The notes beneath the pieces were generated by a model. It saw only the letters and a list, made by a program, of their open reading frames with translations. It did not search any database and was not told where the DNA came from. Source: Mycoplasma sp. CAG:611 (lineage in GTDB: Bacteria; Bacillota_I; Bacilli_A; RF39; UBA660). From it: a DNA stretch of 44,582 nucleotides. The position numbers and the translations under genes were made by a program. The DNA lies in NCBI GenBank assembly GCA_000434175.1, contig HF999802.1:26618-71199 (forward strand), read 5' to 3'. Positions 3,075 to 22,577 of the stretch are shown here, one piece after another. The stretch's first letter is position 1; each line of letters opens with the position of its first letter.

Positions 3075-3102
3075 TTGACTATGTGGCAAAATATGGTAAA
3101 AT
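3075..3102 (+). promoter_or_regulatory. SigA-type promoter of the cargo operon
   Basis: TTGACT (3075-3080), a 16-nt spacer, then an extended -10 TGgTAAAAT (TAAAAT at 3097-3102). Confidence 0.6.
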
Positions 3103-3146
3103 ACTATTTAAATTACTTAGGAGGATGGTGGCATGAAAACATTAAC

Positions 3147-3284
3147 ATGAAAACATTAACAAATATGATATTTAAATGTTTCTTTAAAGAGAATTGCATT
3201 AACAGCCTAAATATTGTTAGTGCTATTTGCTCATGCTTTAATTTCTGCCTAAATTTAAAATTATGTCTTGTCGGCGCATGTTAA
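3147..3284 (+). CDS. Candidate 45-aa Cys-rich hydrophobic peptide in the operon leader (coding status uncertain)
   Basis: MKTLTNMIFKCFFKENCINSLNIVSAICSCFNFCLNLKLCLVGAC has 7 Cys. The AGGAGG at 3119-3124 serves the upstream duplicated ATG at 3133, which reads MKTLT-stop. That TGA overlaps this ATG as ATGA. Confidence 0.3.
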   Translation: MKTLTNMIFKCFFKENCINSLNIVSAICSCFNFCLNLKLCLVGAC

Positions 3285-3311
3285 ACGTAAAAGTTTTGCG
3301 CTGGCTTTTTT
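3269..3311 (+). terminator. Intrinsic terminator/attenuator between the leader and the Rel/SpoT gene
   Basis: A 9-bp stem gtcggcgca/tgcgctggc (2 G-U pairs) with an 18-nt loop, followed by 7 T. It sits 17 nt before the GTG start at 3328. Confidence 0.7.
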
Positions 3312-3327
3312 TATTGGAGGTGTTTAA

Positions 3328-4767
3328 GTGAATAATATTACATTACAAGATTTATTAAATAAGCTAAATGAATATAATCCTAACGAAATTGAAATTGTAA
3401 AAAAAGCATATGAATATGCAGCAAATTTGCACTCAGGTCAAACAAGGCAAAGTGGAGAACCATATATATGTCATCCATTAAATGTTGCTTATATACTCGC
3501 TGAAATGCATGCGGATAGAGATACAATATGTGCAGGATTATTACATGACACATTAGAAGATACTAATACTACTAAAGAAGACATATCACATGACTTTAAT
3601 CAAAATATTGCTAATTTAGTAGACGGAGTAACCAAATTATCTAAAATGAATTTCTCATCTAAGCAAGATCAAAATTATGCTAATACTAGAAAAATAATAA
3701 CAGGAATAACAGAAGATGTTAGAATAATAATTATTAAACTTGCTGATAGACTTCATAATATGAGAACACTACAATTTAAGTCTGAATTTAAACAAAAGGA
3801 AAATTCTATTGAAACAATGGAAATATTTGTACCTTTAGCTTATTATATTGGAGCATATAGAATTAAATCAGAATTAGAAGATTTATCATTAAAGTATCTT
3901 AAACCAGATATGTATAGACAAATAGAAGAACGTAAGATAAAATTAGAACAAACTAGTAGTTATTGTTTAACTGAAATGTTATCTAAAATAGAGCATTTAT
4001 TAAAAGATAACAACATACCTAATGAAATAAAGGTAAGAACTAAGAATATTTATGGTATATATAAAAGATTAAGTGAAGGTCATAAATTATCTGATATTCA
4101 TGATTTATTAGCACTAAAAATTATGGTTGATAATGTTGAAAATTGCTATAGAACACTGGGAATGATTCATAGTGAGTATCATCCAATAAATGATAAATTT
4201 AAAGATTATATATGTAATCCCAAAACAAATATGTATAGAAGCTTACATACAACAGTATTTGGACCTGATGATAAACTAGTACAGACTCAAATTAGAACAT
4301 TTGATATGGATAGAGTAGCGTCATTTGGCTTAACTGCATACTGGGATGAACAAAAAGGTAAAGCTAGAGATGTAATGCAAGAAGACTTAAAACAAAAATT
4401 TCAATTTTTTAAGTCATTAACAGAAATCAATTCTATGTTTGGTGATAATCAACAATTTGTTAAACAAGTAAAAAGTGAATTATTTGCTGATAAGGTTTAT
4501 GTATATACGACTAAGGGAGATATAATAGAACTTCCTAGAGGTTCTACACCAATAGATTTCGCATATAAAATTCATACTGACATAGGAAACACTATGGTAG
4601 GGGTATTTGTTAATGATGAATATGTCCCAATAGATTATATCTTACAAAATAAAGATAGAGTTAGAATAGTAATTGATGATTTATCATATGGTCCAAGAGA
4701 AGATTGGATTAATAAAGCACAAACAAGTTTAGCAAAAAGGAAAATAAAGGAATTTAATAAAAAATAA
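3328..4767 (+). CDS. Rel/SpoT homolog (HD hydrolase + synthetase-like + TGS domains) lacking the C-terminal regulatory half
   Basis: HD motifs HSGQTRQSGEPYICHP and LLHDTLEDT are present, along with LADRLHNMRTL. The synthetase region reads RTKNIYGIYKRL, DLLALKIMV and YRSLHTTV. The TGS domain reads VYVYTTKGDIIELPRGSTPIDFAYKIH. The protein ends about where helical/ZFD/ACT domains begin in full-length Rel. Confidence 0.85.
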   Translation: MNNITLQDLLNKLNEYNPNEIEIVKKAYEYAANLHSGQTRQSGEPYICHPLNVAYILAEMHADRDTICAGLLHDTLEDTNTTKEDISHDFNQNIANLVDGVTKLSKMNFSSKQDQNYANTRKIITGITEDVRIIIIKLADRLHNMRTLQFKSEFKQKENSIETMEIFVPLAYYIGAYRIKSELEDLSLKYLKPDMYRQIEERKIKLEQTSSYCLTEMLSKIEHLLKDNNIPNEIKVRTKNIYGIYKRLSEGHKLSDIHDLLALKIMVDNVENCYRTLGMIHSEYHPINDKFKDYICNPKTNMYRSLHTTVFGPDDKLVQTQIRTFDMDRVASFGLTAYWDEQKGKARDVMQEDLKQKFQFFKSLTEINSMFGDNQQFVKQVKSELFADKVYVYTTKGDIIELPRGSTPIDFAYKIHTDIGNTMVGVFVNDEYVPIDYILQNKDRVRIVIDDLSYGPREDWINKAQTSLAKRKIKEFNKK

Positions 4768-4819
4768 TATTCCAAATTAAAGAAATATATTAAAAAATAA
4801 GAAAGTAAGGTGTTTAAAT

Positions 4820-7003
4820 GTGATTGAAAAAAAAGAAATAAAAAATATTGATTGCAATATAGAAAATGTTTTTAATTATCCAGAAATGTATATAGATTTA
4901 ATTAATAAACAAAAAGGTTTAGTAAAAATTGATAAGAAAAAATACACAGGAAAATCATTGGTATTAGTTATGTTTACATCAGTGTGCGATGTCGGCTGCC
5001 CGTTCTGTTGCTTTAAAGCTTTATCTTCTGCGACTAAGAAAAATATTAAGAATCAATTTACTCCTGAAGGTGTTAATAAATTTATTGAGTTTGCTAATAA
5101 AGCAAATGTTGGATATTTGCAAATATCTGGTGGAGGAGAGCCTTTCTTGGAAAAAGAAGCGTTATTAAAAAGTATTGAAAAAATAAATGCTGATAGGATA
5201 ATTTTAGTTACCGGAGGGGTATGGGCATATAATAGAGAAAAAGCAGAAAAATACTTAGATGAAATAAACCAAGCTATCAAAAAAAGAAAGAAGAAAGCAC
5301 GTATTTCTATTAGATTAAGCATTAGTCAATGCCATAGTATTAAATTAAAACATTATCCACTAGAAAATTTAATTAATATATTTGAAACTAAATATAGAGA
5401 TAATAAAAACTTTACATTACAAATAAAAACATTTAAAGATGATCCAACGTTAGAAAATAATCTAAAGACAATGGGTAGAAAATTTAAAATTGAAAAACTT
5501 CAGCCTAATAAATCTGATGATGACAAAATCATTAAGATAATGCCTTGGAAATCAAAATTAATACTTGACTCTGGATTTGAAATAGTAATTGGAATATCAA
5601 GGGTTTTCTATCCATCATTCAGACCAAATCTACATAATAATAAGTCATTTATGAAAATGGTGGAACTATATGATATAGATTTAGATAAATCACAAAATTA
5701 TTTTCCGTCACGTGCGTATAACTCTAAAGGTTATTTTGGTTTAGATTGGCTTGTAGAATATAATGGTAACATTAGTACATGGCAAAATAGCATTCAGGAC
5801 GATCAATTGAATATCTATGAAGATAATTATAAAACATCATTAAATCATACATTAGCAAATTTAATAACAAGATCATGCATTGACAATGGCTCAAAATATA
5901 GAGAAAAAATTGTATCAGAAATATCACCGAAAACGGTTATGCTGATGAAAGCCAATGGGATTAGAGATTATGCAAGTTCAATCCTCTTTGCTGATGCAAA
6001 GATAAGACTTTATGCTTATATTAGAATATTACAAGATTACGTAAAACAAGGACTTGTAAATGAAAAATTAATAGAAAATATGCCAGCTAGTATACAAAAA
6101 TTAATAAAATCACCTAAAAGTGTAATAAAAAAATATTATTTAAAGTCTAATACTTCGATATTAGCTCAAGAATTAAGTGCAGAGCCAGATAGAGATAAGT
6201 ACAAAGATTTCTTAGAATTAGTTAAATTAGGACATTTTGAAATGTCTAAACAAGATATTCAAACAGCAGTCGCATATTATAATATGTTTTTTCCGGATAA
6301 AAGAATAGCCAAAATAGAAGACTTTGTTAACGATAATAAAAATATGGATTTTAGGTTAAGGGATAGACTCTCTCCGATGAAAAAATTAAAAGATTTGAAT
6401 AATAAAGTAAATAATAAAAAGGAAATTTATATTTTTAGACATGGAGAAACTAATTGGAATGTTGAAAATAAAATTAGAGGAACATTTGAAGACACATCTT
6501 TAAAATTTACTGATAAAGGATTAAAACAGATTGATAAAATAGCATTAGCATTAGAGAAAAATAAAATTGAATATATTTATTCATCAGATCTTATTAGAAC
6601 TAGGAAAACGGTTGAGCTAGCTAATAAAGATTTTAAAATACCGGTGTCTTTTCATAAAGAATTAAGAGCTTGGAATGTTGGAAAATATCAAGGTAAACCA
6701 CTTTCTAATTTTTTAAATAGTCATGAAGGCAAAGAAGCTATTACAGATTACAATAAAGTTGTAACTGATGGTGAAAGTATTAATCAAGTTAGAGAAAGAT
6801 TAATGTATTTCTTAGAAAAATATGTAGTTAATTGTCCTTATGAAAGGGTTGCAATAATTACACATGGAGCCACAATGAGTAATTTAAAATCAGAAATAGA
6901 TGGTGAACAATATATTGATATTGATTATTGCAAAATAGTGTATGAAAATAAAAAGTTTAAATTGGTTGAAAGTAAAATTAGTGAAACTGATTTCGCAAAA
7001 TAA
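4820..7003 (+). CDS. Fusion protein: N-terminal radical-SAM domain, unassigned middle region, C-terminal histidine phosphatase (PGM-family) domain
   Basis: The CX3CX2C motif CDVGCPFC and SGGGEPFL mark the radical-SAM domain. The C-terminus has IYIFRHGETNWN (RHG motif) and a second catalytic His in IITHGAT. GTG start with an AAGGTG RBS. Confidence 0.8.
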   Translation: MIEKKEIKNIDCNIENVFNYPEMYIDLINKQKGLVKIDKKKYTGKSLVLVMFTSVCDVGCPFCCFKALSSATKKNIKNQFTPEGVNKFIEFANKANVGYLQISGGGEPFLEKEALLKSIEKINADRIILVTGGVWAYNREKAEKYLDEINQAIKKRKKKARISIRLSISQCHSIKLKHYPLENLINIFETKYRDNKNFTLQIKTFKDDPTLENNLKTMGRKFKIEKLQPNKSDDDKIIKIMPWKSKLILDSGFEIVIGISRVFYPSFRPNLHNNKSFMKMVELYDIDLDKSQNYFPSRAYNSKGYFGLDWLVEYNGNISTWQNSIQDDQLNIYEDNYKTSLNHTLANLITRSCIDNGSKYREKIVSEISPKTVMLMKANGIRDYASSILFADAKIRLYAYIRILQDYVKQGLVNEKLIENMPASIQKLIKSPKSVIKKYYLKSNTSILAQELSAEPDRDKYKDFLELVKLGHFEMSKQDIQTAVAYYNMFFPDKRIAKIEDFVNDNKNMDFRLRDRLSPMKKLKDLNNKVNNKKEIYIFRHGETNWNVENKIRGTFEDTSLKFTDKGLKQIDKIALALEKNKIEYIYSSDLIRTRKTVELANKDFKIPVSFHKELRAWNVGKYQGKPLSNFLNSHEGKEAITDYNKVVTDGESINQVRERLMYFLEKYVVNCPYERVAIITHGATMSNLKSEIDGEQYIDIDYCKIVYENKKFKLVESKISETDFAK

Positions 7004-7018
7004 TGTAGGAGGTGTATT

Positions 7019-8860
7019 GTGGATAAGGAAATGTTATTATTAAAAGCTAAAAGAATTAATACATATAATAATAAGGAGCAAAAAGAAATCTACGATGAAG
7101 TTATAAAGAATTTTGATAAATTTAGTGAATCTGAGCAAATTGACTTACTGCTTATTATGCGTACATATTTTTTAAAACAAGCAACTTTAGTAGAAAAAAG
7201 AGAATATGTTAAGAAAGTTGTTATAAGTATTAAAAAGCAATCAAACTTTATAGCACAAATCATTGAGTTATCATCAATAATTTATAAGTATACTACTAAA
7301 TCATTGCAGAATGAAATATTTGATGCTGTCTTTTTGGTTAACGATATGAAGCCTAGAAAACTTGTTGCTATATTATATTTTATAAAAAATACACATCGTG
7401 TTTATAATAAAAAACAATTTGATATAAGTAGAAAGAAGATAGAAGAAATCACAAAAGAAGCACCAGAATATTTAACTGACGCAATTACAAGTTTAAATAA
7501 CGATATTAGTAAAGATTTCAAGAAAAAAGGAAAATATTTATTCTTAATACCAGAATTTTTAAATGGCACGACTTTTGTTCAACCACCTTTAGCTTTAATG
7601 AATTGTGCAACTTATTTGAAAAATGACTTTTCTATAGATGTTGATATTCTTGATAATAGAATTTATAATTATCCATTAAAAGATTTACTTAATATTATAC
7701 GTAATTATAAAAAAGGAATAGTAATTTGTTCTTCTACGATTGACCAAGTACATAATTATTTTGTTGATTATCGTTATGTTATTTTTACAAAGTACGTAAA
7801 AACTATTAAAGGTAAATTTAATAATATACCGATTATCATATGTGGTGGGCAGGGCACTGTGAGGCCAGATATCGTCTTTAACGATTGTAATCCTGATTAT
7901 ATATTAAAAGGGGAATTTGATATTCAATTAGCTAATGTAATTAGAAATATGGATAAAAATGTTCCAATTGAAAATCTTCCAAATATTATTTATAAAGAGA
8001 AGAAGAAAATAATTAAAACAAGAGAGGATTTGAATGAACAACATCCAGTTGAATGGTGTAAATATGTACCTAATTATAATTTGATTCATTTAGAATGTTA
8101 TTTTGGCTATAGATATTATGATAATATGCCGGTAAGAAAATTGCACTGGAGTGTTGTTCAAGCAAGTAGAGGGTGTCCATTTAATTGCGCTTTCTGTTAC
8201 AATTTTTTTGCTAAAAGTGTTCGCTTTAGAAAAATAGATTCGGTAATAGCCGAATTAAAAGAAATACAAGAACGTGGGATTGAAGAAATATTCTTCTTAG
8301 ATCAAAATTTTATACTTGATAAAAAATATGCACAAAATTTATGCAAAGCCATGATAAATACTAAAATTCGAATCAAATGGCAATGCCAGATTTGTGTAAA
8401 TTCAATAGACTATGATACACTTAGTGTTATGAAAAAGGCGGGGTGTCAATTAATTTGGTTAGGTATTGAAAGTTTTGATGAAAATGTTCGCAAAATTAAT
8501 AATAAGAATTATTCTAATGAGCAATTATTAAAAGCAGTAGTTGCAATTAAAAATGCAGGAATTAATTACAATGGATTCTTTATGCTTGGTATGATGGGGG
8601 ATACTAATGAATCAATGGGAAAAACAGTTGAGTTAATAAAAAAACACAAAATAAATCTTACCAAAAGCATATTAATATGTACTCCTAGATTTGATACACA
8701 AATGTATCAAGAAACTGTTAAACAATTGGGAACAGAAATTGATAGTTTTTTAAAACTTGATTCGTATAAAGGAAGTATTAATAATAATGTAACTGAATCT
8801 GATATTAGTTATTATTTAGGAGAATTATTAAAAATGTCTAATGACAAAAAAGGAGAGTGA
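7019..8860 (+). CDS. B12-binding-domain radical-SAM enzyme with an N-terminal extension of about 170 aa
   Basis: A Rossmann-like B12-binding-type region (LFLIPEF...PPLALMNCATYL...ILDNR) precedes SRGCPFNCAFCYN (CX3CX2C). GTG start 6 nt after GGAGG. Confidence 0.75.
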   Translation: MDKEMLLLKAKRINTYNNKEQKEIYDEVIKNFDKFSESEQIDLLLIMRTYFLKQATLVEKREYVKKVVISIKKQSNFIAQIIELSSIIYKYTTKSLQNEIFDAVFLVNDMKPRKLVAILYFIKNTHRVYNKKQFDISRKKIEEITKEAPEYLTDAITSLNNDISKDFKKKGKYLFLIPEFLNGTTFVQPPLALMNCATYLKNDFSIDVDILDNRIYNYPLKDLLNIIRNYKKGIVICSSTIDQVHNYFVDYRYVIFTKYVKTIKGKFNNIPIIICGGQGTVRPDIVFNDCNPDYILKGEFDIQLANVIRNMDKNVPIENLPNIIYKEKKKIIKTREDLNEQHPVEWCKYVPNYNLIHLECYFGYRYYDNMPVRKLHWSVVQASRGCPFNCAFCYNFFAKSVRFRKIDSVIAELKEIQERGIEEIFFLDQNFILDKKYAQNLCKAMINTKIRIKWQCQICVNSIDYDTLSVMKKAGCQLIWLGIESFDENVRKINNKNYSNEQLLKAVVAIKNAGINYNGFFMLGMMGDTNESMGKTVELIKKHKINLTKSILICTPRFDTQMYQETVKQLGTEIDSFLKLDSYKGSINNNVTESDISYYLGELLKMSNDKKGE

Positions 8861-8865
8861 TATAA

Positions 8866-9870
8866 ATGAATGCTAAAGAAATTAGTAAAAGTAAATATTT
8901 AGATTTTGTTGAAGAAAAATTTAAGGCTTGTTTTAATGAAAAAGGATATGTTGAAGAACCAGCAGTTAATGTTACTTCCAAAATTGATCCAACAGTTGAC
9001 TTTATAGGTTCTAATATTTCACCATTAAAAAAATACTTAGATAATGAAGAATATGGTGATATAGGAAGATACATTGTGCAGGAATGTATGAAATATAAAT
9101 CATTTAAATATCTGAAAACTGATGTTCCACAAAAATTTGGCTGTTATTATAGAGGAATGGGAATAATAGCAAAACCAGATTTAGAAACAGTTGTTAAAGA
9201 TACTTTTGATTATTTAACTGATGAAAAATATTTAAACATTCCTCCTAAAGATCTTTGTATAAAGATTAGTTCTAAGGATGATGATTTAGTAAAGGCAACT
9301 GAAATTATCGATGGTGAAATAACTCGTTTAGTTGAGCAATCAAGCACTGAACATTATAGGCATCAATACGGCATGGATGAAAAAAATATTTTTGGAAGAG
9401 ATTTTAATATAGGCCTTAGAAAAAAAGACACAAATGAGTTTTTGAATTTTGCTGCTTTTGTTGTTATGGAAAATAATGATAGAAAGTTAGCTATTGATAT
9501 GGGGATTAGCAATTTAGTTTTATCTATGTGTAAATTTGGTACAAGTTCTACAGTAGCTAGTTCAAGAATTGCAGATTTTCTTGACATAGATTGTATTATA
9601 AAAGAAAAATTTGCAGATGCATTAGTTGCTGTATCAATTTTATTGAAAGAAGATATCACCAATCATAGATCTAAACATTTAAGAATGAAATTTAATCAAT
9701 ATTTACGTGTATTAAATTATTGGAATGAACAATTACAATATACTAACGAAGATGTAGTTAATTTAATTGTAAATTATTTAACTGCAGAATATCATTCTTG
9801 CTTTGAGCAAAGAAAAGATGAATTTTATAAAGTATTAACTTTGCAAAAAAAACGTATGGGTATAAAATAG
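8866..9870 (+). CDS. Stand-alone alanyl-tRNA-synthetase catalytic-core-like protein (divergent, possibly non-canonical)
   Basis: A by-eye alignment to the AlaRS N-terminus holds along the whole length. KEISKSKYLDF..IDPTVDFIGSNISPLKKYL matches AEIRQAFLDFF..NDPTLLFTNAGMNQFK. AIDMGISNLVLSM matches VDTGMGLERIAAV. ADALVAVSILLKEDI..HLRMKFNQYLRVL matches ADHIRSCAFLIADGV..YVLRRIIRRAVR. Confidence 0.5.
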   Translation: MNAKEISKSKYLDFVEEKFKACFNEKGYVEEPAVNVTSKIDPTVDFIGSNISPLKKYLDNEEYGDIGRYIVQECMKYKSFKYLKTDVPQKFGCYYRGMGIIAKPDLETVVKDTFDYLTDEKYLNIPPKDLCIKISSKDDDLVKATEIIDGEITRLVEQSSTEHYRHQYGMDEKNIFGRDFNIGLRKKDTNEFLNFAAFVVMENNDRKLAIDMGISNLVLSMCKFGTSSTVASSRIADFLDIDCIIKEKFADALVAVSILLKEDITNHRSKHLRMKFNQYLRVLNYWNEQLQYTNEDVVNLIVNYLTAEYHSCFEQRKDEFYKVLTLQKKRMGIK

Positions 9871-9902
9871 ATTATTATATAATAATAAGTATGGAGGATA
9901 AA

Positions 9903-10607
9903 ATGAGATTATTTTTAGCTAGTAATATTGGGGGTATAAAAAAGGAAAATGGTAATAAAATGCCAGTAAAATTTTTTGAAGATAATAAATTTTTAAAAAA
10001 TATGAAAGAAAGCATAAAGGATTACAATAAATTTGTTATTATTGCGAGTGATCCTGACAATTACGAATTAAACGATAATTATCTAAAACTAGATACAGAA
10101 ATTTTAGCATTATCAGGTCTTAAATTTAAAGAAAGTTTGGTACTTGATAATCGAAATAAAGAAGATATTGGTAATATACTTAAGAATAGTTCACTTATTT
10201 TTCTTAGTGGTGGTAATACATTTCAGCAAAATATGTTTTTAAATGCTATAAAGCTTAAAGATTATATCAAAGAAACTGATGCATGTATTGTTGGGATTAG
10301 TGCTGGCGCAATAAATAGTGCAGAAATTGTGTTTAGTAGTCCTGAAAATGAAAAAGATTTAACTCGTTCTGTCATATTAAAAGGTCTTGCTTTAACTACA
10401 ATTAACGTTGAACCACATTTTGATTTAGATAATCCTAATAAGATTCAAATGGATTCAATAATAAAAGAGTCAAATAATAGGATTATTTATGGGCTTCCAG
10501 ATAAATCGTATATATTTAATAATAAAGTTTATGGTAAATGTTATAGAATTTATAAAGAAAATATTGAACTAATTTCAAATGATGATGAAATAATAGATAT
10601 ATATTAA
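9903..10607 (+). CDS. Peptidase S51 family (dipeptidase E / cyanophycinase-like)
   Basis: FLSGGNTFQQ and VGISAGAINS (the GxSAG nucleophile elbow) are present. I chose the ATG at 9903, 5 nt after GGAGG, over the ATG at 9891. Confidence 0.7.
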   Translation: MRLFLASNIGGIKKENGNKMPVKFFEDNKFLKNMKESIKDYNKFVIIASDPDNYELNDNYLKLDTEILALSGLKFKESLVLDNRNKEDIGNILKNSSLIFLSGGNTFQQNMFLNAIKLKDYIKETDACIVGISAGAINSAEIVFSSPENEKDLTRSVILKGLALTTINVEPHFDLDNPNKIQMDSIIKESNNRIIYGLPDKSYIFNNKVYGKCYRIYKENIELISNDDEIIDIY

Positions 10608-10638
10608 TTAATAATTTTTCTTAAGGAGGTTGATTTAA

Positions 10639-11355
10639 TTGATAATTTCAAATGATTTATTTTATTTAAGTGGTAGTTGTTTTTCTGCGGTAAATAATAA
10701 AAGTATATTAGGCGAAGTATATGGTATAAATACAGGCCAAGGGTTAATATTAATAGATTGTGGAGAGGCTTCAACTGGTCCTGCTATGTTGAAAAAAACA
10801 TTAAAAAAATTTAATATTAATTCGCCTATAACGCATGTCATTCTTACTCATGGACACCACGATCACTGTGGAGGTGCTAAAGAAATGCAAGAGGCAGGTG
10901 CGAAAATTATAGTAGGTGCAGGTGATGCAACTTATTGCAAACAAGGTGGGCCAAAAGGAACACCATATGATATAGAGCAATCATTTCCTGCATTTATTCC
11001 CGATGTAGAAATATCTGTAGACAAAGAAATGATTATAAACGGTATTATGTTTGAATTTATTATGATACCAGGACATACAAATGGAGGAATGGCCATTAGG
11101 GTAAAGGTCGATGGTAAACTTGTTTTGTTTACCGGTGATACATTGGAAGCGGATGGAACTTACTTAGATAAATTTTTATTTGGTTGGGAAGGAGATCCAG
11201 CTTTTAATAAAGAAGAGATTGTTAATAGTATAATGAAATTAGCAAAATATAAAGCTGATATAGTTTTATCTGGCCACGGAAAAATATGCTTAATAAATGG
11301 TACTAAGTTGATCCGTCAAGCAGCAAAAAAAGTGAAAAGCATTCTAAATGTATGA
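10639..11355 (+). CDS. Metallo-beta-lactamase-fold hydrolase
   Basis: HxHxDH motif in VILTHGHHDHCGGA, with later His/Asp ligands (PGHTNGG, TGDT, SGHG). TTG start after GGAGG. Confidence 0.8.
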   Translation: MIISNDLFYLSGSCFSAVNNKSILGEVYGINTGQGLILIDCGEASTGPAMLKKTLKKFNINSPITHVILTHGHHDHCGGAKEMQEAGAKIIVGAGDATYCKQGGPKGTPYDIEQSFPAFIPDVEISVDKEMIINGIMFEFIMIPGHTNGGMAIRVKVDGKLVLFTGDTLEADGTYLDKFLFGWEGDPAFNKEEIVNSIMKLAKYKADIVLSGHGKICLINGTKLIRQAAKKVKSILNV

Positions 11356-12008: not shown

Positions 12009-12542
12009 CAATATTCACATACAAATAAACTTGTTAGGTTTTATGAAGGAGCAGATGGTCTTAAAACGGGTTCAACTACAGATGCTGGAAAATGTATCGC
12101 AGCAACTGCCAAAAGAAATGGTTTAAGACTTATTGCAATAAGTTTAGGATATAAAGATGTAACAACAAGAAATAAAGAAACAATGGATTTACTTGATTAT
12201 GGTTTTAATCAATATGAAATAAATATGCTTTATGAAAAAGATAAAAAAGTAGGAACAGTTAATGTAGATAAGGTAAATGAAAAAATAGATTTATATGCTA
12301 AAGAAGATATATTTATATTAAAAAAGAAAATAGATGAAAGTATTTCTTATCAATATGAAATAGTTTTAGATAATGTTAGTTATCCAATTAAAAAAGGTCA
12401 AAAAATAGCAACACTTTATGTAAAAGACAATAATACAATAGTAAAAAAATCTCCTTTAGTAGTAAATAAAGATATAAATAAGATGAGTATATTAAAGTTA
12501 TATTTTTATAACTTAAAAGACATTCTAGCAGGATTAAATTAA
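12009..12542 (+). pseudogene. 3' fragment of a D-alanyl-D-alanine carboxypeptidase (PBP5/DacB/DacF type)
   Basis: The frame opens after the TAG at 12006-12008 and reads HTNKLVRFYEGADGLKTGSTTDAGKCIAATAKRNGLRLIAISLG...LLDYGF, which includes the KTG motif and C-terminal domain. The SxxK and SxN parts are absent from the window. Confidence 0.7.
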
Positions 12543-16475: not shown

Positions 16476-18392
16476 GTGGTAGTTATTAAAGTAATAAAAA
16501 GAGATGGCTCATCAGTTGAATATGATAGAGAAAAAATAAAAATAGCCATAAGCAAAGCTAATAATGAGGTAAATGATGAAGAAAAAATATCACTTGCACA
16601 GATAAATAATATTATAAAATATATTGAAAGTTTAAACAAAAAAAGAATTTTAGTTGAAGATATTCAAGATATTATAGAAATAAGACTTATGAGTGCAGGA
16701 AAATATGAACTAGCTAAAAAATATATTACATATCGATATACAAGAGCGCTTATTAGAAAAGCAAATACAACAGATGAATCAATACTTAGTTTGCTTAAAA
16801 ATAATAATTCATTTGGTATAAAAAATAATAATGCATCTTATCAAAGAGATTTAATAGCAAGGGAAGTATCAAAAGATTTAACAGAAAGAATTTTATTGCC
16901 AGAAAAAATAGTTAAAGCACATGAAAAAGGTTTAATATACTTTCATGATATGGATTATTTTATTCAACCTATAATTAATTCAAGTTATATCAATCTTAAA
17001 GATATGTTAGAAAATGGAACATACATAAATGGTGTTAAAATAGAAAAGCCTAAGTCATTTCAAGTGGCATGTAATGTTACAATGCAAATTATTAATGCTA
17101 TATCAAACGGGCAAATAAATGGATTTTCTATTGATATAGATTGTTTAAGTCCTTATTTAAATGCAACATATTTAAAAAATGTTAATATGTTAAAAGAAAA
17201 ATATAAGACTAAAGCAAATGATATTTTGATAAAGACATTAGCTAATGATTTAACAAAAAAAGAATTAGAAAATGGAGTTCAAACCATTCATTATCAGATT
17301 AATACTCTTATTAACAGTAGTGGTGTTGTACCTTTGGTTACTTTGTTTTTAAGAATAAATAAAGATGATTTATTTAAACAAGAAACAGCCCTTATTATTG
17401 AAGAAATATTAAAACAAAGATTAAATGGTATAAATAAAGAAAGTGGTAAAGAAGAATATATATATCCTAAAATAGTATATGTTTTAGATGAAACTAATAA
17501 TTTAACTGGAGGATGTTATGATTATTTAACGAAAATTGTCGTAAATTGTATTTTAAATAATGGTAATGTTAATCTTCTTAGTTCAAAGAAAATGAAAGAG
17601 ATGTTTAATGGTAATGTTTTCTCTCCAATCGGAGAAAATCAATTTTTACCTATTTATAAAACATCCTCTAAATATAAGTTTGTTGGTAGATTTAATCAAG
17701 GAATAGTAAGTCTTAATTTACCAAGAGTAGCACTTTCTTTAAAAGAAAATGAGGACTTTTTTGAAAAATTAGATGAAGTTCTTGAAATATGTAAAGAATC
17801 ACTTTTATGTAAGTATTATTCACTTCTTGGTACAAATGAAGCAATATCAAGTATTCATTTTAGATATGGAGGTATAAGTAGACTAAATAAAAATGAAAAA
17901 ATAGATGAATTATTAAAAAATGGTTATTCAACACTTTTACTTAGTTATGTAGGGCTTCCTGAAGTAGTATATCTTCTTTTGAAAAAAAATATTAAGGAAG
18001 AAGAAGGAGAAAGCTTAGCAATTAAAATATTAAATAGGATAAATGAAGTTTTAAATAATTTATCAAATGAAATAGGAGTTAGTTTTAAATTATATTCATT
18101 TTATGATAATGTTTCTTCTAAATATTTTATAAATAAAGATTTAGAAGAGTTTGGTTATATTAAAAAAATAACTGATAAATCAAGTTATAATAGTGCTTAT
18201 TTTATTGAAGATGAAAAGCTTAATAAAATAGAAAAATTAGAATATGAAAAGAAATTTAATAATTTATCTTTGGGTGGAACAATTAATAGAGTTGATATAA
18301 GTGATTTAAAAATGGATGAATTAGAAGATTTAATAAAATATATTTATGAAAATGTTATATATTGCAATTTAAAAAATATGAAAAGGAGATAG
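16476..18392 (+). CDS. Degenerate NrdD paralog: ATP-cone plus class III RNR barrel, lacking active-site Cys, Zn ribbon and glycyl-radical domain
   Basis: It aligns with the downstream NrdD (VIKRDG ATP-cone, FHDMDYF, IEKPKSF). However HNCELINL becomes INSSYINL and CMGCRSFL becomes PIGENQFL. The protein ends before the CxxC...RTCGY segment. Confidence 0.75.
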   Translation: MVVIKVIKRDGSSVEYDREKIKIAISKANNEVNDEEKISLAQINNIIKYIESLNKKRILVEDIQDIIEIRLMSAGKYELAKKYITYRYTRALIRKANTTDESILSLLKNNNSFGIKNNNASYQRDLIAREVSKDLTERILLPEKIVKAHEKGLIYFHDMDYFIQPIINSSYINLKDMLENGTYINGVKIEKPKSFQVACNVTMQIINAISNGQINGFSIDIDCLSPYLNATYLKNVNMLKEKYKTKANDILIKTLANDLTKKELENGVQTIHYQINTLINSSGVVPLVTLFLRINKDDLFKQETALIIEEILKQRLNGINKESGKEEYIYPKIVYVLDETNNLTGGCYDYLTKIVVNCILNNGNVNLLSSKKMKEMFNGNVFSPIGENQFLPIYKTSSKYKFVGRFNQGIVSLNLPRVALSLKENEDFFEKLDEVLEICKESLLCKYYSLLGTNEAISSIHFRYGGISRLNKNEKIDELLKNGYSTLLLSYVGLPEVVYLLLKKNIKEEEGESLAIKILNRINEVLNNLSNEIGVSFKLYSFYDNVSSKYFINKDLEEFGYIKKITDKSSYNSAYFIEDEKLNKIEKLEYEKKFNNLSLGGTINRVDISDLKMDELEDLIKYIYENVIYCNLKNMKRR

Positions 18393-18398
18393 AAAAAT

Positions 18399-20564
18399 AT
18401 GCAAGTAATTAAAAGAGATGGAAGAAGACAAAAATTTGATAAGGAGAAGATATATAATGCTGTTAGTAAAGCATTTATTGAAGTTGATAAAGAATTAACG
18501 GAACAAGATAAGAAAAAGGCTTTAGAAATAGCAGATTATATTGAAAGTTTAAACAAAAATTTGAAGGTGGAAGAAGTTCAGGATATCGTTGAAGATAAAC
18601 TTATGGCAAGTAATAGGAAAGATGTTGCTAGATGTTATATAAGATATAGATATTTAAGAGGACTTGTAAGAGAAAGTAATACAACAGATAAAACAATATT
18701 TGAGCTTTTAAATGGTACAAATGAGTATTGGAATAGTGAAAATGCTAATAAAAATGCTAAAGTTGTTACCGTTCAAAGAGATTACATAGCAGGTATTACA
18801 AGTACTGATATAACAAGAAGATTTTTACTTCCTAAAGATATTGTGGAAGCACATGATGCTGGGATAATTCATTTTCATGATGCAGATTATTTCGCACAAA
18901 ATGCTTTACATAATTGTGAACTTATAAATCTTGAAGATATGTTACAAAATGGTACAATGATTAATAATATCTTAATTGAAAAGCCACATAGATTTTTAAC
19001 TGCAGCAACTATTGCAACTCAAATAATAACAGCGGTAACAAGTTCAAGTTATGGTGGTGCTACGATTACTTTAACAGCACTTGCACCATTTGTTAGATCT
19101 AGTTATAACAAATATTATGATAAGTATAAAAAAAGAGGCATGGATGATGAAACATGCAAAAAATATGCCATGGAAGATACAAAAAAAGAAATTGAAGATG
19201 GGGTTCAGACATTTAATTATCAGGTAAATTCAATGACTAATACAAACGGACAATCTCCTTTCTTATCAGTATGTATGTATCTTGGAGAAACAGAAGAATA
19301 CAAAGAGGAATTAGCTCTTATAATCGAGGAATTTTTAAAACAAAGAATATTAGGACTTAAGAATGAAAAAGGTGTTTACATAACACAAGCTTTTCCTAAA
19401 CTTTTATATGTTCTTGAAGAAGACAATATAAAAGAAGATAGTAAATATTATTATTTAACTGAGCTTGCTGCTAAATGTACTGCTAAAAGATTAGTTCCTG
19501 ATTATATTTCTGAAAAAATCATGAAAGAATGTAAAATAGATGCAAATGGTAATGGACAATGTTATCCATGTATGGGTTGTCGAAGCTTTTTAACACCATA
19601 TTTAGATAAAAATGGAAAACCTAAATATTATGGAAGATTTAATCAAGGCGTTGTTACTATTTCATTACCAGATGTTGCTTTATCTAGTAAAAAAGACATG
19701 GAAGAATTCTGGAAAATATTTGAAGAAAGATTAGAATTGTGTCATAGAGCACTTCAAATAAGACACGAACGCCTTGCCCATGCCATAAGTGATATTGCTC
19801 CAATTTTATGGCAACATGGGGCCCTTGCAAGACTTGAAAAAGGAGAAAGTATTCATGAACTTTTACATAATGGTTATTCAACTATATCACTTGGATATGC
19901 AGGACTTTATGAATGTGTTAAATATATGACAGGGAATTCTCATACTGATAATGGTGTAGGTAAAGAATTTGCTTTAGAAGTTATGAAAAAACTTAATGAT
20001 AAATGTGCTGAATGGAAAAAAGCAGAAAAAATAGATTATAGTGTTTATGGAACTCCAATTGAATCAACAACCTATAAATTTGCTAAATGTTTAAGAAATA
20101 GATTTGGTATAATCGAAGGAATAACTGATAGAGATTATATAACTAATTCATATCATGTTCCAGTATTTGAAAAAATAGACCCATTTACTAAATTAGCATT
20201 AGAAAGTGAATTTCAAAAACTATCTCCAGGTGGTGCGATAAGTTATATTGAATGTGCTGATTTAACAAATAATGTTGATGCTGTAATTGAAGTTATTAAA
20301 TTTATTTATGATCATATTATGTATGCAGAACTTAATACTAAATCAGACTATTGTCAAGTTTGTGGCTATGATGGTGAAATAAAAATCGTTGATGAAGATG
20401 GCAAACTTGATTGGAAATGTCCTAACTGTGGTAATATGGACCATTCTAAAATGAATGTTGCAAGAAGAACATGTGGTTATATTGGTACAAACTTCTTTAA
20501 TCAAGGAAGAACTGATGAAATTAGAAATAGATATGTTCATTTAGATAATCATAAAATAGACTAG
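18399..20564 (+). CDS. nrdD: Anaerobic ribonucleoside-triphosphate reductase (class III)
   Basis: ATP-cone, GCRSFL active-site loop, Zn ribbon CQVCG...CPNCG and glycyl-radical motif RRTCGYIG. Confidence 0.92.
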   Translation: MQVIKRDGRRQKFDKEKIYNAVSKAFIEVDKELTEQDKKKALEIADYIESLNKNLKVEEVQDIVEDKLMASNRKDVARCYIRYRYLRGLVRESNTTDKTIFELLNGTNEYWNSENANKNAKVVTVQRDYIAGITSTDITRRFLLPKDIVEAHDAGIIHFHDADYFAQNALHNCELINLEDMLQNGTMINNILIEKPHRFLTAATIATQIITAVTSSSYGGATITLTALAPFVRSSYNKYYDKYKKRGMDDETCKKYAMEDTKKEIEDGVQTFNYQVNSMTNTNGQSPFLSVCMYLGETEEYKEELALIIEEFLKQRILGLKNEKGVYITQAFPKLLYVLEEDNIKEDSKYYYLTELAAKCTAKRLVPDYISEKIMKECKIDANGNGQCYPCMGCRSFLTPYLDKNGKPKYYGRFNQGVVTISLPDVALSSKKDMEEFWKIFEERLELCHRALQIRHERLAHAISDIAPILWQHGALARLEKGESIHELLHNGYSTISLGYAGLYECVKYMTGNSHTDNGVGKEFALEVMKKLNDKCAEWKKAEKIDYSVYGTPIESTTYKFAKCLRNRFGIIEGITDRDYITNSYHVPVFEKIDPFTKLALESEFQKLSPGGAISYIECADLTNNVDAVIEVIKFIYDHIMYAELNTKSDYCQVCGYDGEIKIVDEDGKLDWKCPNCGNMDHSKMNVARRTCGYIGTNFFNQGRTDEIRNRYVHLDNHKID

Positions 20565-20575
20565 AAGGTGAAATA

Positions 20576-21073
20576 ATGAGATATGCTCAAATAAGAGATA
20601 TGGATATAAGTAATGGTGAAAAAATAGGAGTAGCGTTATTTACATCAGGATGTAGATTTTATTGTAAAAATTGTTTTAACAAAGAATTATGGGATGTAAA
20701 AAGTGGTAATTTATGGAGTAAGGAAGTTGAAGATAATTTCCTTACTCTTGCTAAACCTGATTATATATCAAGAATATCAATATTAGGGGGAGAACCTTTT
20801 ATTGATGAAAATTTAACAGACTTAGAAAAATTAGTTAAAAGAATTAAAGAAACTTATCCTAATAAAAAACTATGGATATATTCAGGATATACATATGAAG
20901 AATTATTAGAAAGAGCAAAAAATATATTAAACTATGTTGATATTTTAGTAGATGGAAGATACGTTGATGAATTAAAAGATTACAAATTAAAATTCAGGGG
21001 TTCTTCTAATCAAAGAGTAATTGATGTTCAAAATAGTTTAAAAGAAAACAAAGTAATTATATATTTAGATTAA
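20576..21073 (+). CDS. nrdG: Anaerobic RNR activating radical-SAM protein
   Basis: GCRFYCKNC (CX3CX2C) and ILGGEPF are present. Size and position after nrdD fit. Confidence 0.88.
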   Translation: MRYAQIRDMDISNGEKIGVALFTSGCRFYCKNCFNKELWDVKSGNLWSKEVEDNFLTLAKPDYISRISILGGEPFIDENLTDLEKLVKRIKETYPNKKLWIYSGYTYEELLERAKNILNYVDILVDGRYVDELKDYKLKFRGSSNQRVIDVQNSLKENKVIIYLD

Positions 21074-21085
21074 GGAGATTAAAAT

Positions 21086-21523
21086 ATGTTAGTAAATATA
21101 AAAAAATTAAATGAAAATGCTAAACTTCCTACTTATGGCACAGTTTATTCTGCTGGATGTGATTTATATGCTTGCATGGATGAAGATGTTAGTATAAATC
21201 CAGGAGAAACTAAATTAATCAAAACAGGATTAAGTATGGAAATACCAGAAAATTATGCAGGACTTATTTATGCAAGAAGTGGGTTAGCAACAAAAAAAGG
21301 CCTTGCTCCTGCTAATAAAGTTGGAGTAATAGATAGTGATTATAGAGGCGAAATAATGGTAGCTTTACATAATCATAGTAATGAAGTTCAAACAATTGAT
21401 AAAAATGAAAGAATAGCACAATTAGTAGTAACACCATTTTTAAAAGTAGAATTTAATGAAGTAGAAGATTTAAATGATACAGTACGTGGTGCTGGTGGTT
21501 TTGGTTCAACTGGTACAAAATAA
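21086..21523 (+). CDS. dut: dUTP diphosphatase
   Basis: dUTPase motifs SAGCDLYA, ARSGLA, GVIDSDYRGEI and RGAGGFGSTG. Confidence 0.9.
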   Translation: MLVNIKKLNENAKLPTYGTVYSAGCDLYACMDEDVSINPGETKLIKTGLSMEIPENYAGLIYARSGLATKKGLAPANKVGVIDSDYRGEIMVALHNHSNEVQTIDKNERIAQLVVTPFLKVEFNEVEDLNDTVRGAGGFGSTGTK

Positions 21524-21998: not shown

Positions 21999-22577
21999 AT
22001 GATAGAACAATTAGAACAAAAAACAGTAATTAAAAGTAATAAAAAAGAAAATAAGAAAAACTTAAATTTAAGTAAAAGAATTGATAATGTATTAAAAAAT
22101 ATTAACGAAAGAAACCCTGTAAAATTAAGAAATTATACACCACAAATATTAGTTGAAAATGGTGTTAAAGATCTTCCAATGTATGAAAACCCATCTCATA
22201 TAAGAAAAAACATTTTAACTAAAAAAGAGACACAAAAATTAGGCTTAGCAACAAGTATAAGAAATCATTATCATGGTTTAGGTAAGGAACTTTATATAAA
22301 AATAATTAATAGTTTGGACAGCCCGAGAGTTATATTTAAAAATAAAAACAATAAGGATTATTTGATATTAACGACAGTTAAAGATGATAATAATAGTAAC
22401 ATAATAGTTCTCATTGAAATAGAAACAATTACAAAAATAAATATCTTTAATATTGACATTAATAGAATAAAGACTGTATATGGTTATGATAGGAAAGATC
22501 CTGATTTAAATAAATATATTAAAAATAATATTAAATTAGGAAGGTTTACAAAAATTTATGAACAAAAAAGAACTTAA
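21999..22577 (+). CDS. Stand-alone MuF-C-terminal/PBECR-like domain protein (MGE-associated)
   Basis: The pattern LPMYENPSHIRKNIL...HYHGLGKELYIKIINSLDSPRVIF...YLILTTVKDDNNSNIIVLIEI...INRIKTVYGYD matches my recollection of that domain. No search was run. Confidence 0.35.
   Translation: MIEQLEQKTVIKSNKKENKKNLNLSKRIDNVLKNINERNPVKLRNYTPQILVENGVKDLPMYENPSHIRKNILTKKETQKLGLATSIRNHYHGLGKELYIKIINSLDSPRVIFKNKNNKDYLILTTVKDDNNSNIIVLIEIETITKINIFNIDINRIKTVYGYDRKDPDLNKYIKNNIKLGRFTKIYEQKRT

Follow-up and report, generated by a model that had tools for sequence, protein, structure and literature searches.

What might an operon make that joins a truncated Rel protein to two radical S-adenosylmethionine (SAM) enzymes, an alanyl-tRNA synthetase (AlaRS)-like core, a serine peptidase and a metallo-hydrolase? 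The question is raised by a 44,582-nt stretch of DNA from Mycoplasma sp. CAG:611 (NCBI GenBank assembly GCA_000434175.1, contig HF999802.1, positions 26,618 to 71,199 of the forward strand; G+C ~25%), referred to below as the window. Six open reading frames (ORFs) in it, all on the + strand (3328-4767, 4820-7003, 7019-8860, 8866-9870, 9891-10607 and 10639-11355), are separated by spacers of 52, 15, 5, 20 and 31 nt, with a GGAGG-type ribosome-binding site ahead of most of them. An initial reading of the window from its letters and ORF translations (the sequence-only reading) had described these genes as co-directional and close-packed, which they are, and had put the largest gap at 53 nt, where it is 52 nt. 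Its domain calls, the operon and the element context were borne out by profile searches and by a fold match for the AlaRS-like protein. The domains that it had proposed to look for with nine Pfam profiles were found, except that PF02310 scored below its cutoff and that AlaRS was seen by NCBIfam and by fold comparison rather than by Pfam.

By analogy with known aminoacyl-nucleoside systems, we tentatively propose, with somewhat less than even confidence, that the operon directs the synthesis of a purine nucleoside or nucleotide bearing an amino acid and an added C-methyl group, and that its hydrolases mature this compound or protect the host from it. Such a compound, whose purine is probably adenine, would count among the aminoacyl-nucleoside antimetabolites.

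Distribution of the operon and a conserved three-gene core

A total of 32 fetched loci (L numbers below) were scanned with the window proteins and through the called genes of their contigs. The same six genes were found in L015/L019 (88% identity, at another chromosomal site), in L020 and in L010 (61-67% identity, with the gene for the S51 peptidase on the opposite strand), the last in a region resembling an integrative and conjugative element, with TraG and a serine recombinase. L017/L018 hold a decayed copy in which a 49-aa Rel remnant carries an internal deletion, S51 is missing and a Peptidase_S11 fragment adjoins. A core of three genes, coding for the AlaRS-like protein, the radical SAM-histidine phosphatase fusion and the S51 peptidase, was found in at least 10 further distinct loci, and its hosts span Bacilli, Erysipelotrichaceae, Christensenellaceae, Clostridia, an alphaproteobacterial metagenome-assembled genome (MAG) and Patescibacteria; in Shapirobacteria the core stands head-to-head with a Rel gene. 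That the genes belong together, as the sequence-only reading supposed, is thus upheld by their co-occurrence in other genomes. The genes for Rel, the class-B radical SAM enzyme and the metallo-beta-lactamase (MBL)-fold hydrolase are missing from most loci.

The MAG that carries the six-gene L019 holds a second, divergent locus (L028, 6940-11790) without a radical SAM-histidine phosphatase gene, in which a 437-aa protein, a 284-aa radical SAM protein, an S51 peptidase, an AlaRS-like protein and a second S51 peptidase are encoded between SpoIVB and SpoIIM. The pair of AlaRS-like protein and S51 peptidase seems to be the tightest association of all.

A radical SAM family linked to nucleotide enzymes

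The 727-aa product of 4820-7003 combines an N-terminal radical SAM module (Fer4_12/Radical_SAM), a family-specific beta/helical region, of which residues ~337-530 form a helical domain, and a C-terminal histidine phosphatase (His_Phos_1, residues 536-699) whose RHG motif is visible in the ORF translation. The CxxxCxxC and GGE motifs of the radical SAM module are invariant across the family, and the cysteines of the former (C56/C60/C63) are the sole invariant cysteines among 33 family members. Foldseek matches of the AF2 model (pLDDT 90.7) were confined to the core (TMq ~0.4), with EpeE/YydG (3e-9) ranking first and anSME, BlsE and BtrN after it.

The 727-aa family was found in Clostridia, Christensenellaceae, Patescibacteria, Alphaproteobacteria and Janthinobacterium, and an exhaustive profile search placed the radical SAM module in ~100 clusters at 50% identity. 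Its fusion partners include NUDIX, adenosine deaminase, dCTP-deaminase-like, class-B radical SAM, histidine phosphatase, ARMT1-like phosphatase and SIR2_2 domains, and one protein (P0061) joins radical SAM, histidine phosphatase and S51 in a single chain. The class-B domain fused in P0305 is only 23% identical to the class-B enzyme of the window, so that this fusion backs a functional link between the enzyme classes and not orthology. Where the module stands alone, its neighbors are a LuxR-STAND regulator, a dTMP-kinase-like gene and adenylate kinase (L007), or EamA, an RlmN-like radical SAM enzyme, MFS, an AlaRS-like protein and an NDK-domain protein (L035). L033 adds a separate histidine phosphatase, an S66 LD-carboxypeptidase/MccF-family protein, an AlaRS-like protein, Vut_1, a HAD-NUDIX protein, glycosyltransferases and dNK. 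These nucleotide enzymes, fused to the module or adjacent to it, favor a nucleotide as its substrate.

Homologues of the module were found neither in PLSDB plasmids nor in INPHARED phages, where in both cases only the phosphatase domain gave matches, nor in IMG/VR viral contigs. A viperin-like enzyme, prompted by weak NCBIfam matches, was considered and rejected, since NF038283 scored 22.5 bits against a cutoff of 180 and no viperin appeared among the top Foldseek matches.

In L014 (1825-5814), the AlaRS-like and radical SAM-histidine phosphatase-S51 genes are split into many short ORFs under translation table 11, although P0061 is 951 aa long; the contig therefore probably uses an alternative code that reads UGA as sense. 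A class II aminoacyl-tRNA synthetase (aaRS) gene (tRNA-synt_2 plus an anticodon-binding domain) lies directly upstream.

An AlaRS-like core with an associated peptidase

The 334-aa product of 8866-9870 had no Pfam match and matched NCBIfam AlaRS at E 1.4e-6. Against solved structures, phmmer returned nothing relevant and a profile search reached AlaRS only at E 0.41, while hhalign of the family to genuine AlaRS covered query residues 20-136 only. The AlaRS identity was settled by fold comparison, in which the AF2 model (pLDDT 91) matched AlaRS catalytic fragments at E ~1e-15 (TMq 0.73-0.76). The model is that of an AlaRS-like catalytic core standing on its own, to which a short helical domain is attached at the C-terminus; it includes part of the helical tRNA-recognition region and lacks the editing and C-Ala domains, which is the truncated fold of the AcmF type. 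The family is without any annotation. Two of its residues, N181 and D211, are invariant and, on inspection of the motifs, look like N212 and D235 of AlaRS, tentatively suggesting that the adenylate-forming residues are kept. Two other leads to this family were dropped: a 320-aa alphaproteobacterial neighbor proved to be a dTMP-kinase-like P-loop protein, and the AlaX proteins of a paper in Nat Chem are editing-domain proteins distinct from the family of the window.

The next gene (9891-10607) codes for a serine peptidase of the PepE/cyanophycinase family (Peptidase_S51, 9.5e-14) in which alignment to PepE (7c9b) shows the GxSAG nucleophile and the PH motif, and the last (10639-11355) for an MBL-fold hydrolase (Lactamase_B, 7.4e-25) with an HxHxDH motif. 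In L033 and L034 the slot held by S51 elsewhere is taken by an S66/MccF-type peptidase. A sister cluster (L039/L040) codes for a MoaA/viperin-like radical SAM enzyme, an S51-like protein, a class-B radical SAM enzyme 48% identical to that of the window, an FkbM methyltransferase, a GNAT protein, a LysRS/EpmA-like class II core and an RlmN-like protein.

The class-B radical SAM enzyme and its RlmN/Cfr-type counterparts

The 613-aa product of 7019-8860 is a class-B-type radical SAM enzyme (Radical_SAM, 8.7e-25) with a 180-residue N-terminal extension and a CPFNCAFC motif, visible in its translation, that contains the CxxxCxxC core. The sequence-only reading had classed it as a B12-type enzyme. 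The radical SAM part of that call stands, and cobalamin binding is less secure: the B12-binding profile PF02310 matched with 17 bits (E 0.0053), short of its cutoff of 32.1, homologues with 48-64% identity have a PF02310 match among their precomputed annotations, and the nearest solved relative is AprD4 (6fd2). AprD4 is a B12-less diol dehydratase that has a cobalamin-binding-type domain and uses no B12. OxsB was absent from the PDB sequence matches of the 613-aa protein. NCBIfam matches were all below their cutoffs (PhpK family, 127.8 against 600), and sub-threshold matches to RiPP (ribosomally synthesized and post-translationally modified peptide) C-methyltransferases were also seen.

In L001, L012, L029, L032 and L035 the core is accompanied by a radical SAM protein of 283-312 aa. 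It is a relative of RlmN/Cfr (E 1e-50 to 1e-72, sub-cutoff) whose match starts at profile position ~70, and the N-terminal RNA-binding domain is accordingly missing. The RlmN-like copy of L039, as read from its sequence, retains both mechanistic cysteines.

A class-B homologue with 38% identity overlaps a stand-alone histidine phosphatase gene in the Bacteroidales loci L037/L038 (8421-19741). The cluster that it heads contains three more radical SAM genes and genes for an Fe-S aldo-keto reductase, glycosyltransferases and a formyltransferase.

A truncated Rel with an altered synthetase site

The first gene of the operon (3328-4767) codes for a truncated long RelA/SpoT homologue (RSH) with hydrolase (HD), synthetase-like and TGS domains. 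It scores 533.6 against a cutoff of 499.2 for TIGR00691, covering profile positions 1-451 of 687, from which the truncation is evident, and is ~50% identical to residues 7-483 of B. subtilis Rel (6yxa). It stops at residue 479, equivalent to residue 483 of B. subtilis Rel, straight after the TGS domain, and thus lacks the C-terminal helical, zinc-finger/RIS and ACT/RRM domains. In long RSH enzymes the helical, zinc-finger and ACT domains are needed for control by the ribosome.

The hydrolase motifs, among them the His-Asp metal site and the ED motif, are intact (HD_4, 1.9e-41), with HPLNV...LLHDTLEDT...KLADRLHNMRTL aligning with B. subtilis Rel, and so is the TGS domain. The RelA_SpoT domain is recognizable (1e-29), yet QTQIRT replaces EVQIRT, changing the catalytic Glu to Gln, and neighboring synthetase motifs are altered as well (MH to MD, AAHW to TAYW). 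All of these changes are identical in the four cluster-borne copies (window, L015, L020 and L010), down to 61% identity, indicating an old and selected feature. To judge from these motifs, the changes argue for a hydrolase or binding role rather than for pyrophosphorylation of alarmones or tRNA. Compared with long Rel/SpoT enzymes, then, the window copy shares the HD catalytic motifs and differs in lacking the regulatory region beyond TGS, in the Gln at the synthetase site and in heading a mobile operon of biosynthetic type. It also differs from toxic small alarmone synthetases (toxSAS; FaRel2/CapRel), which are stand-alone active synthetases with an antitoxin, in being the N-terminal half of a long RSH.

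Proposed pathway and its closest known relatives

Across the loci a common theme recurs through non-orthologous replacement: a nucleotide-linked radical SAM enzyme, a class II aaRS-like core that has no anticodon-binding domain, a serine peptidase of S51 or S66 type, sometimes joined by a GNAT protein, and a radical SAM enzyme of adenine C-methylase type or of class B. Gene content, folds, conservation, mobility, the pattern of fusions and neighborhoods and the Glu-to-Gln change are results of the analysis; from them we infer a substrate, a product and a succession of reactions as follows. The radical SAM module of the 727-aa protein would alter a nucleotide, from which the fused histidine phosphatase would strip a phosphate. 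The class-B enzyme would perform a second radical step, either C-methylation or deoxygenation, for which simpler relatives would use an RlmN/Cfr-type adenine C-methylase without an RNA-binding domain. The AlaRS-like protein would then add an amino acid, through its own adenylate or, as AcmF does, from an aminoacyl-tRNA. The S51 peptidase would take this amino acid off again, in self-immunity or activation (compare AcmE and MccF). Lastly, the MBL-fold hydrolase and the HD domain of Rel would trim phosphodiester or 3'-pyrophosphate groups, with the synthetase-like and TGS domains serving binding or regulation rather than alarmone synthesis, and expression would be controlled at a leader ORF that ends within a terminator hairpin.

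The sequence-only reading had not recognized the combination as a described pathway, and this holds: full-text literature searches combining the domain names returned no description of the gene set, and PADLOC-DB v2 has no model for it. The closest precedent, compared here by description, is ascamycin biosynthesis in Streptomyces sp. 80H647, in which AcmF, a truncated AlaRS-like protein with aminoacylation and tRNA-recognition domains only, alanylates a nucleoside sulfamate from Ala-tRNA and the hydrolase AcmE removes the alanine (PMC12945691). Both systems thus pair a truncated AlaRS-like protein with nucleoside-modifying partners and an amino-acid-removing hydrolase. In AcmF, substitutions (N219Q, D232E) have removed residues that bind ATP and alanine, and its Ala-tRNA has to be supplied by AcmD, a full AlaRS paralogue (PMC12945691), whereas the window family tentatively appears to keep the Asn and Asp (N181, D211) and its operon contains no AlaRS paralogue. 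Sulfamate and halogenation genes are likewise absent from the window operon, its hydrolase belongs to S51 and is not an alpha/beta hydrolase, and radical SAM chemistry is central to it.

Microcin C, with its immunity enzymes MccF (an S66 peptidase) and MccE/RimL (a GNAT protein), offers a second parallel, in that the loci studied here place a serine peptidase, of S66 type in L033, and in L039 also a GNAT protein, beside an aaRS-like enzyme; this arrangement is, by analogy, consistent with cleavage of an aminoacyl-nucleotide. The window operon differs from it in having no MccB (ThiF-like) and no heptapeptide precursor ending in Asn, and in using S51 rather than S66. Radical SAM enzymes paired with nucleotide kinases or phosphohydrolases, as here, are known from thmABC, a tiny radical SAM nucleoside-antibiotic cluster for 4'-thiothymidine (PMC12691670), from prokaryotic viperins (pVips), from Ophion and from oxetanocin OxsB/OxsA, and the pairing of an HD protein (OxsA) with a class-B radical SAM enzyme (OxsB) has its counterpart in the 613-aa enzyme and the HD domain of Rel. 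None of these systems has an aaRS-like protein with a peptidase, and the radical SAM module of the window forms a separate family.

Among the hypotheses of the sequence-only reading, that of a modified or aminoacylated nucleotide is the best supported, by the nucleotide-enzyme partners, the RlmN/Cfr-type partner, the MccF-type S66 peptidase and the AcmF precedent. Several points weigh against it. Its support is association throughout. In the models, the fold of the radical SAM module appears nearest to SPASM/twitch-type enzymes acting on peptides or sugars (EpeE, anSME, BtrN), with BlsE as the only nucleoside-acting enzyme among the top matches. The putative equivalence of N181 and D211 comes from motif inspection and not from a significant alignment. 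The roles of Rel, the class-B enzyme and the MBL-fold hydrolase, each missing from most loci, are the least constrained. The window operon has neither an exporter nor a nucleotide kinase, and the genome-reduced Patescibacteria among the hosts, together with the SIR2 fusion, would fit defence or housekeeping equally well.

Defence and RNA-directed alternatives

Defence against phages or other mobile elements is the alternative that survives best, and we regard it as unlikely. On infection, the radical SAM and phosphatase enzymes would produce a modified nucleotide within the cell, either a chain terminator or a signal, after the manner of pVips and Ophion, and the other enzymes would be regulators or antidotes. 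The operon is mobile-element cargo in variable regions, L033 adjoins AbiE and HipA, SIR2_2 is the fusion partner in one member of the family, L007 has neighboring kinases as pVips do, and homologues of the MBL-fold hydrolase weakly match Anti-Pycsar_Apyc1. There is also a precedent in Ophion, a validated defence system built of a radical SAM enzyme, a PHP phosphatase and a PRTase (bioRxiv 10.1101/2025.09.30.679545). However, PADLOC-DB v2 gave no match for the radical SAM-histidine phosphatase, the AlaRS-like protein or S51, and only weak, partial matches to candidate families for the Rel-like (PDC-S33, 35 bits), class-B and MBL-fold proteins. The viperin model fell far short of its cutoff and viperin was not among the fold matches, the MFS and EamA exporters of L035 suggest a secreted product, an aaRS-like protein with a peptidase is without precedent in defence systems, and a sensor/effector architecture is absent.

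A second alternative, which we consider distinctly unlikely, is that the system is directed at RNA, where it would modify or repair tRNA 3' ends or adenines of the A37/A2503 type or use them as targets in a conflict. Binding of the acceptor end would fall to the AlaRS-like protein and TGS, methylation of RNA adenine to the RlmN-like or class-B enzyme, and removal of a 3'-phosphate or 3'-pyrophosphate to the histidine phosphatase and HD domain. Chemistry of this sort has a parallel in toxSAS, which pyrophosphorylate the tRNA CCA end, and in the small alarmone hydrolases that undo the modification. The intact TGS domain, the portion of the tRNA-recognition region retained in the AlaRS-like model, the kinship of the partners with the RNA methylases RlmN/Cfr and the binding of aminoacyl-tRNA by AcmF (PMC12945691) all agree with such a role. 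Set against it are the missing RNA-binding domain of those same RlmN-like partners, the lack of Rel-TGS in most loci, fusions and neighbors that are small-molecule nucleotide enzymes (NUDIX, ADA, DCD, ADK, NDK), and the Glu-to-Gln change, which speaks against pyrophosphotransfer. The related suggestion of the sequence-only reading, a conflict or defence module at tRNA 3' ends, comes out weaker than the nucleotide hypothesis for the same reasons of missing Rel and altered Glu, and for the want of a PADLOC match for the three core proteins.

The leader region and a peptide-based alternative

Upstream of the Rel gene lies a promoter-like site (TTGACT-16 nt-TG-TAAAAT, 3075-3102, + strand) whose -35 and -10 elements are conserved in L015. 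In such AT-rich DNA, promoter-like matches occur at chance level (74 found against 82.6 expected), so that the site is supported by its position and conservation and not by the match itself. The sequence-only reading had seen one strong promoter here; a site is indeed present, and its match is no stronger than chance would give. The site is followed on the same strand by a perfect 14-nt tandem duplication (ATGAAAACATTAAC x2, 3133-3160) that is unique to the window and single-copy in L015. The duplication yields a 5-codon mini-ORF, MKTLT* (3133-3150), with a TGA stop that shares nucleotides with the start codon of a leader ORF (ATG at 3147), and it could alter translation of the leader and hence expression of the operon.

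The leader ORF itself (3147-3284, +) has 45 codons and places its stop codon within an intrinsic-terminator-like hairpin (3270-3305) that is followed by a U-run (3306-3312) and lies directly 5' of the ribosome-binding site of the first gene. Of the leader/attenuator that the sequence-only reading had placed at 3269-3311, the hairpin proved to be real: it has a folding energy of -16.3 kcal/mol (z -2.9), and hairpins at the equivalent position in L015 (z -5.6) and L020 (z -6.1) differ in stem sequence with compensatory changes. ORFs of 45 codons in L015 and 35 in L020 occupy the same place and end in these hairpins. The leader of L010 holds only a 5-codon ORF and a weaker hairpin. A known RNA element in the leader was ruled out, an Rfam search having found no family at E <= 1. 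We read the leader, on this sequence evidence, as a predicted translation-coupled attenuator rather than as the gene for a precursor peptide.

That it does encode a precursor is the crux of a third and improbable alternative, a RiPP or carrier-peptide ("pearlin"-like) route in which the EpeE-like and class-B radical SAM enzymes modify the 45-aa product, the AlaRS-like protein adds an amino acid and S51 releases the product. A precursor gene followed by a leaky terminator is common in RiPP operons. The shared position of the small ORF in the window, L015 and L020 fits this route, as do the peptide epimerase EpeE as best fold match of the radical SAM module and the sub-threshold matches of the class-B enzyme to RiPP C-methyltransferases. 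The peptide, however, is poorly conserved (~30% identity where the enzymes have 88%), and its cysteines, one of which ends the window ORF, number 7, 2 and 3 in three related leader peptides, so that the Cys-rich peptide of the sequence-only reading is not a feature kept among relatives. The L010 ORF has just 5 codons, and most of the three-gene loci examined have a promoter directly ahead of the first gene and no ORF-plus-hairpin leader, with a possible exception in L021 (a 38-codon ORF, with a small repeat resembling a hairpin, directly 5' of the AlaRS-like gene). The radical SAM module shows neither the conserved auxiliary Fe-S cysteines nor the conserved precursor peptide of SPASM/twitch RiPP maturases, and a peptide route leaves the nucleotide-enzyme fusions unexplained. 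With the stop codon buried in the hairpin in addition, the earlier RiPP hypothesis is weak.

A motif seemingly common to the leader ORFs and to small ORFs 5' of the three-gene loci (ICSCF / ICTSKY) was discarded as likely chance, since the small ORFs of the three-gene loci are located 5' of the promoter.

The mobile element and its target gene

The operon is the cargo of a small serine-recombinase integrative element. The following features, all on the + strand, flank it in the window. At 9-1280 lies the integrase of the element, a large serine recombinase that matches phrog_95 (integrase) over profile positions 140-564 of 651 at E 2.5e-101, its N-terminus lost at the window start; a DnaD/replication-initiator-like element gene follows at 1363-1887 (phrog_270, 678 and 186; E 7e-12 to 3e-6). 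At 2374-2904, directly 5' of the operon, a small sigma-70/ECF-type sigma factor is encoded (Sigma70_r2; TIGR02937, 66 bits against a cutoff of 42.9) that may be a candidate regulator of it. On the other side, the 3' part of a dac gene for D-Ala-D-Ala carboxypeptidase (12030-12542; KTG motif, PBP5_C) abuts the element at ~12030 and thereby marks its right end. The island had been said to interrupt dac, with which the resumption of the 3' part agrees; the 5' part and the left end of the element fall beyond the window.

Large serine recombinases also flank the core in L005, L023, L025, L026, L027, L029 and L032. In L023, L025 and L027 a 5' fragment of dac ends just past the SxxK motif, immediately upstream of the core, and in L023 and L025 the dac frame resumes beyond the recombinase (dac at 3446-3700 and ~9580-10300 in L023, at 9643-9810 and ~16000-16300 in L025 and at 9137-9361 in L017). 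The insertion point past SxxK differs from that of the window, just before KTG, and the recombinases of the two types are only distantly related (56-60 bits); two recombinase lineages therefore bring this cargo into the same gene. The MAG with L019 and L028 encodes SpoIVB and SpoIIM, and the targeting of dac may reflect the "intervening element" habit of entering sporulation genes or may be linked to the cargo. A fourth alternative, in which the cargo remodels peptidoglycan stem peptides or nucleotide-linked precursors (Ala or D-amino acid on and off) in connection with the interrupted dac, could draw on these two lineages entering dac at different positions, on the S66 LD-carboxypeptidase family protein in the peptidase slot of L033 and on the epimerase-like radical SAM fold, yet it is very improbable given that the cluster lies away from dac in L010 and L015, that a preference of serine recombinases for sporulation-type genes would explain the targeting in a host lineage with SpoIVB and SpoIIM, and that Mur or Fem-type partners are absent.

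Further observations concern the surroundings of the relatives and of the window operon. In L015 two pairs of genes for an AMP-binding enzyme and a hybrid histidine kinase (4528-8208 and 17722-21480) bracket the six-gene cluster, a direct gene-pair repeat that may mark how the cluster arrived, and a 583-aa short-form AlaRS and nucleotide kinases are encoded a few kb upstream. In L010 a tRNA-like sequence (8075-8150; anticodon CCA by eye, tRNA-Trp) and a terminator lie just 5' of the cluster promoter. The remainder of the window is ordinary chromosome. It includes tandem paralogues of the anaerobic ribonucleotide reductase NrdD (16476-18392 and 18399-20564), each with an ATP-cone and only the second with a glycyl-radical domain, followed by NrdG (20576-21073) and dUTPase (21086-21523). 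Between dUTPase and FtsK, a solitary 192-aa protein with a phage MuF C-terminal domain (21999-22577) may be a phage remnant.

Implications

The comparative data define a concrete three-gene core. A more specific version of the proposed aminoacyl-nucleoside pathway, which we offer as a long shot, would have it start from an adenine nucleotide, either an ordinary one or one that is 3'-pyrophosphorylated as in alarmones, and arrive by radical chemistry at an aminoacylated, C-methylated nucleoside resembling the aminoacylated A76 terminus of tRNA, a puromycin-like poison of translation or a signal, spread by dac-targeting elements in gut Bacilli and Patescibacteria, with the altered Rel recognizing or detoxifying the 3' end of the product. 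If so, the operon would represent a new class of natural product related to alarmones and tRNA ends, and a new use for an RSH enzyme.

If the broader proposal of an aminoacylated, C-methylated nucleoside or nucleotide is correct, uncultured Bacilli of the gut, Patescibacteria and some Proteobacteria would have in common a minimal and mobile pathway that leads to an aminoacyl-nucleoside antimetabolite and is built on three un-annotated families: a radical SAM/helical module that is usually fused to a phosphatase, an AlaRS-like core for which there is no Pfam model and a dedicated S51 peptidase. It would be the second, and a widespread, case of AlaRS-derived enzymes working outside translation, after AcmF, and would give RlmN/Cfr-type adenine C-methylases without an RNA-binding domain a role in small-molecule chemistry. 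It would also show secondary metabolism drawing on an RSH enzyme whose synthetase site bears a conserved Glu-to-Gln substitution, and would point to a new nucleoside scaffold together with resistance enzymes against it.

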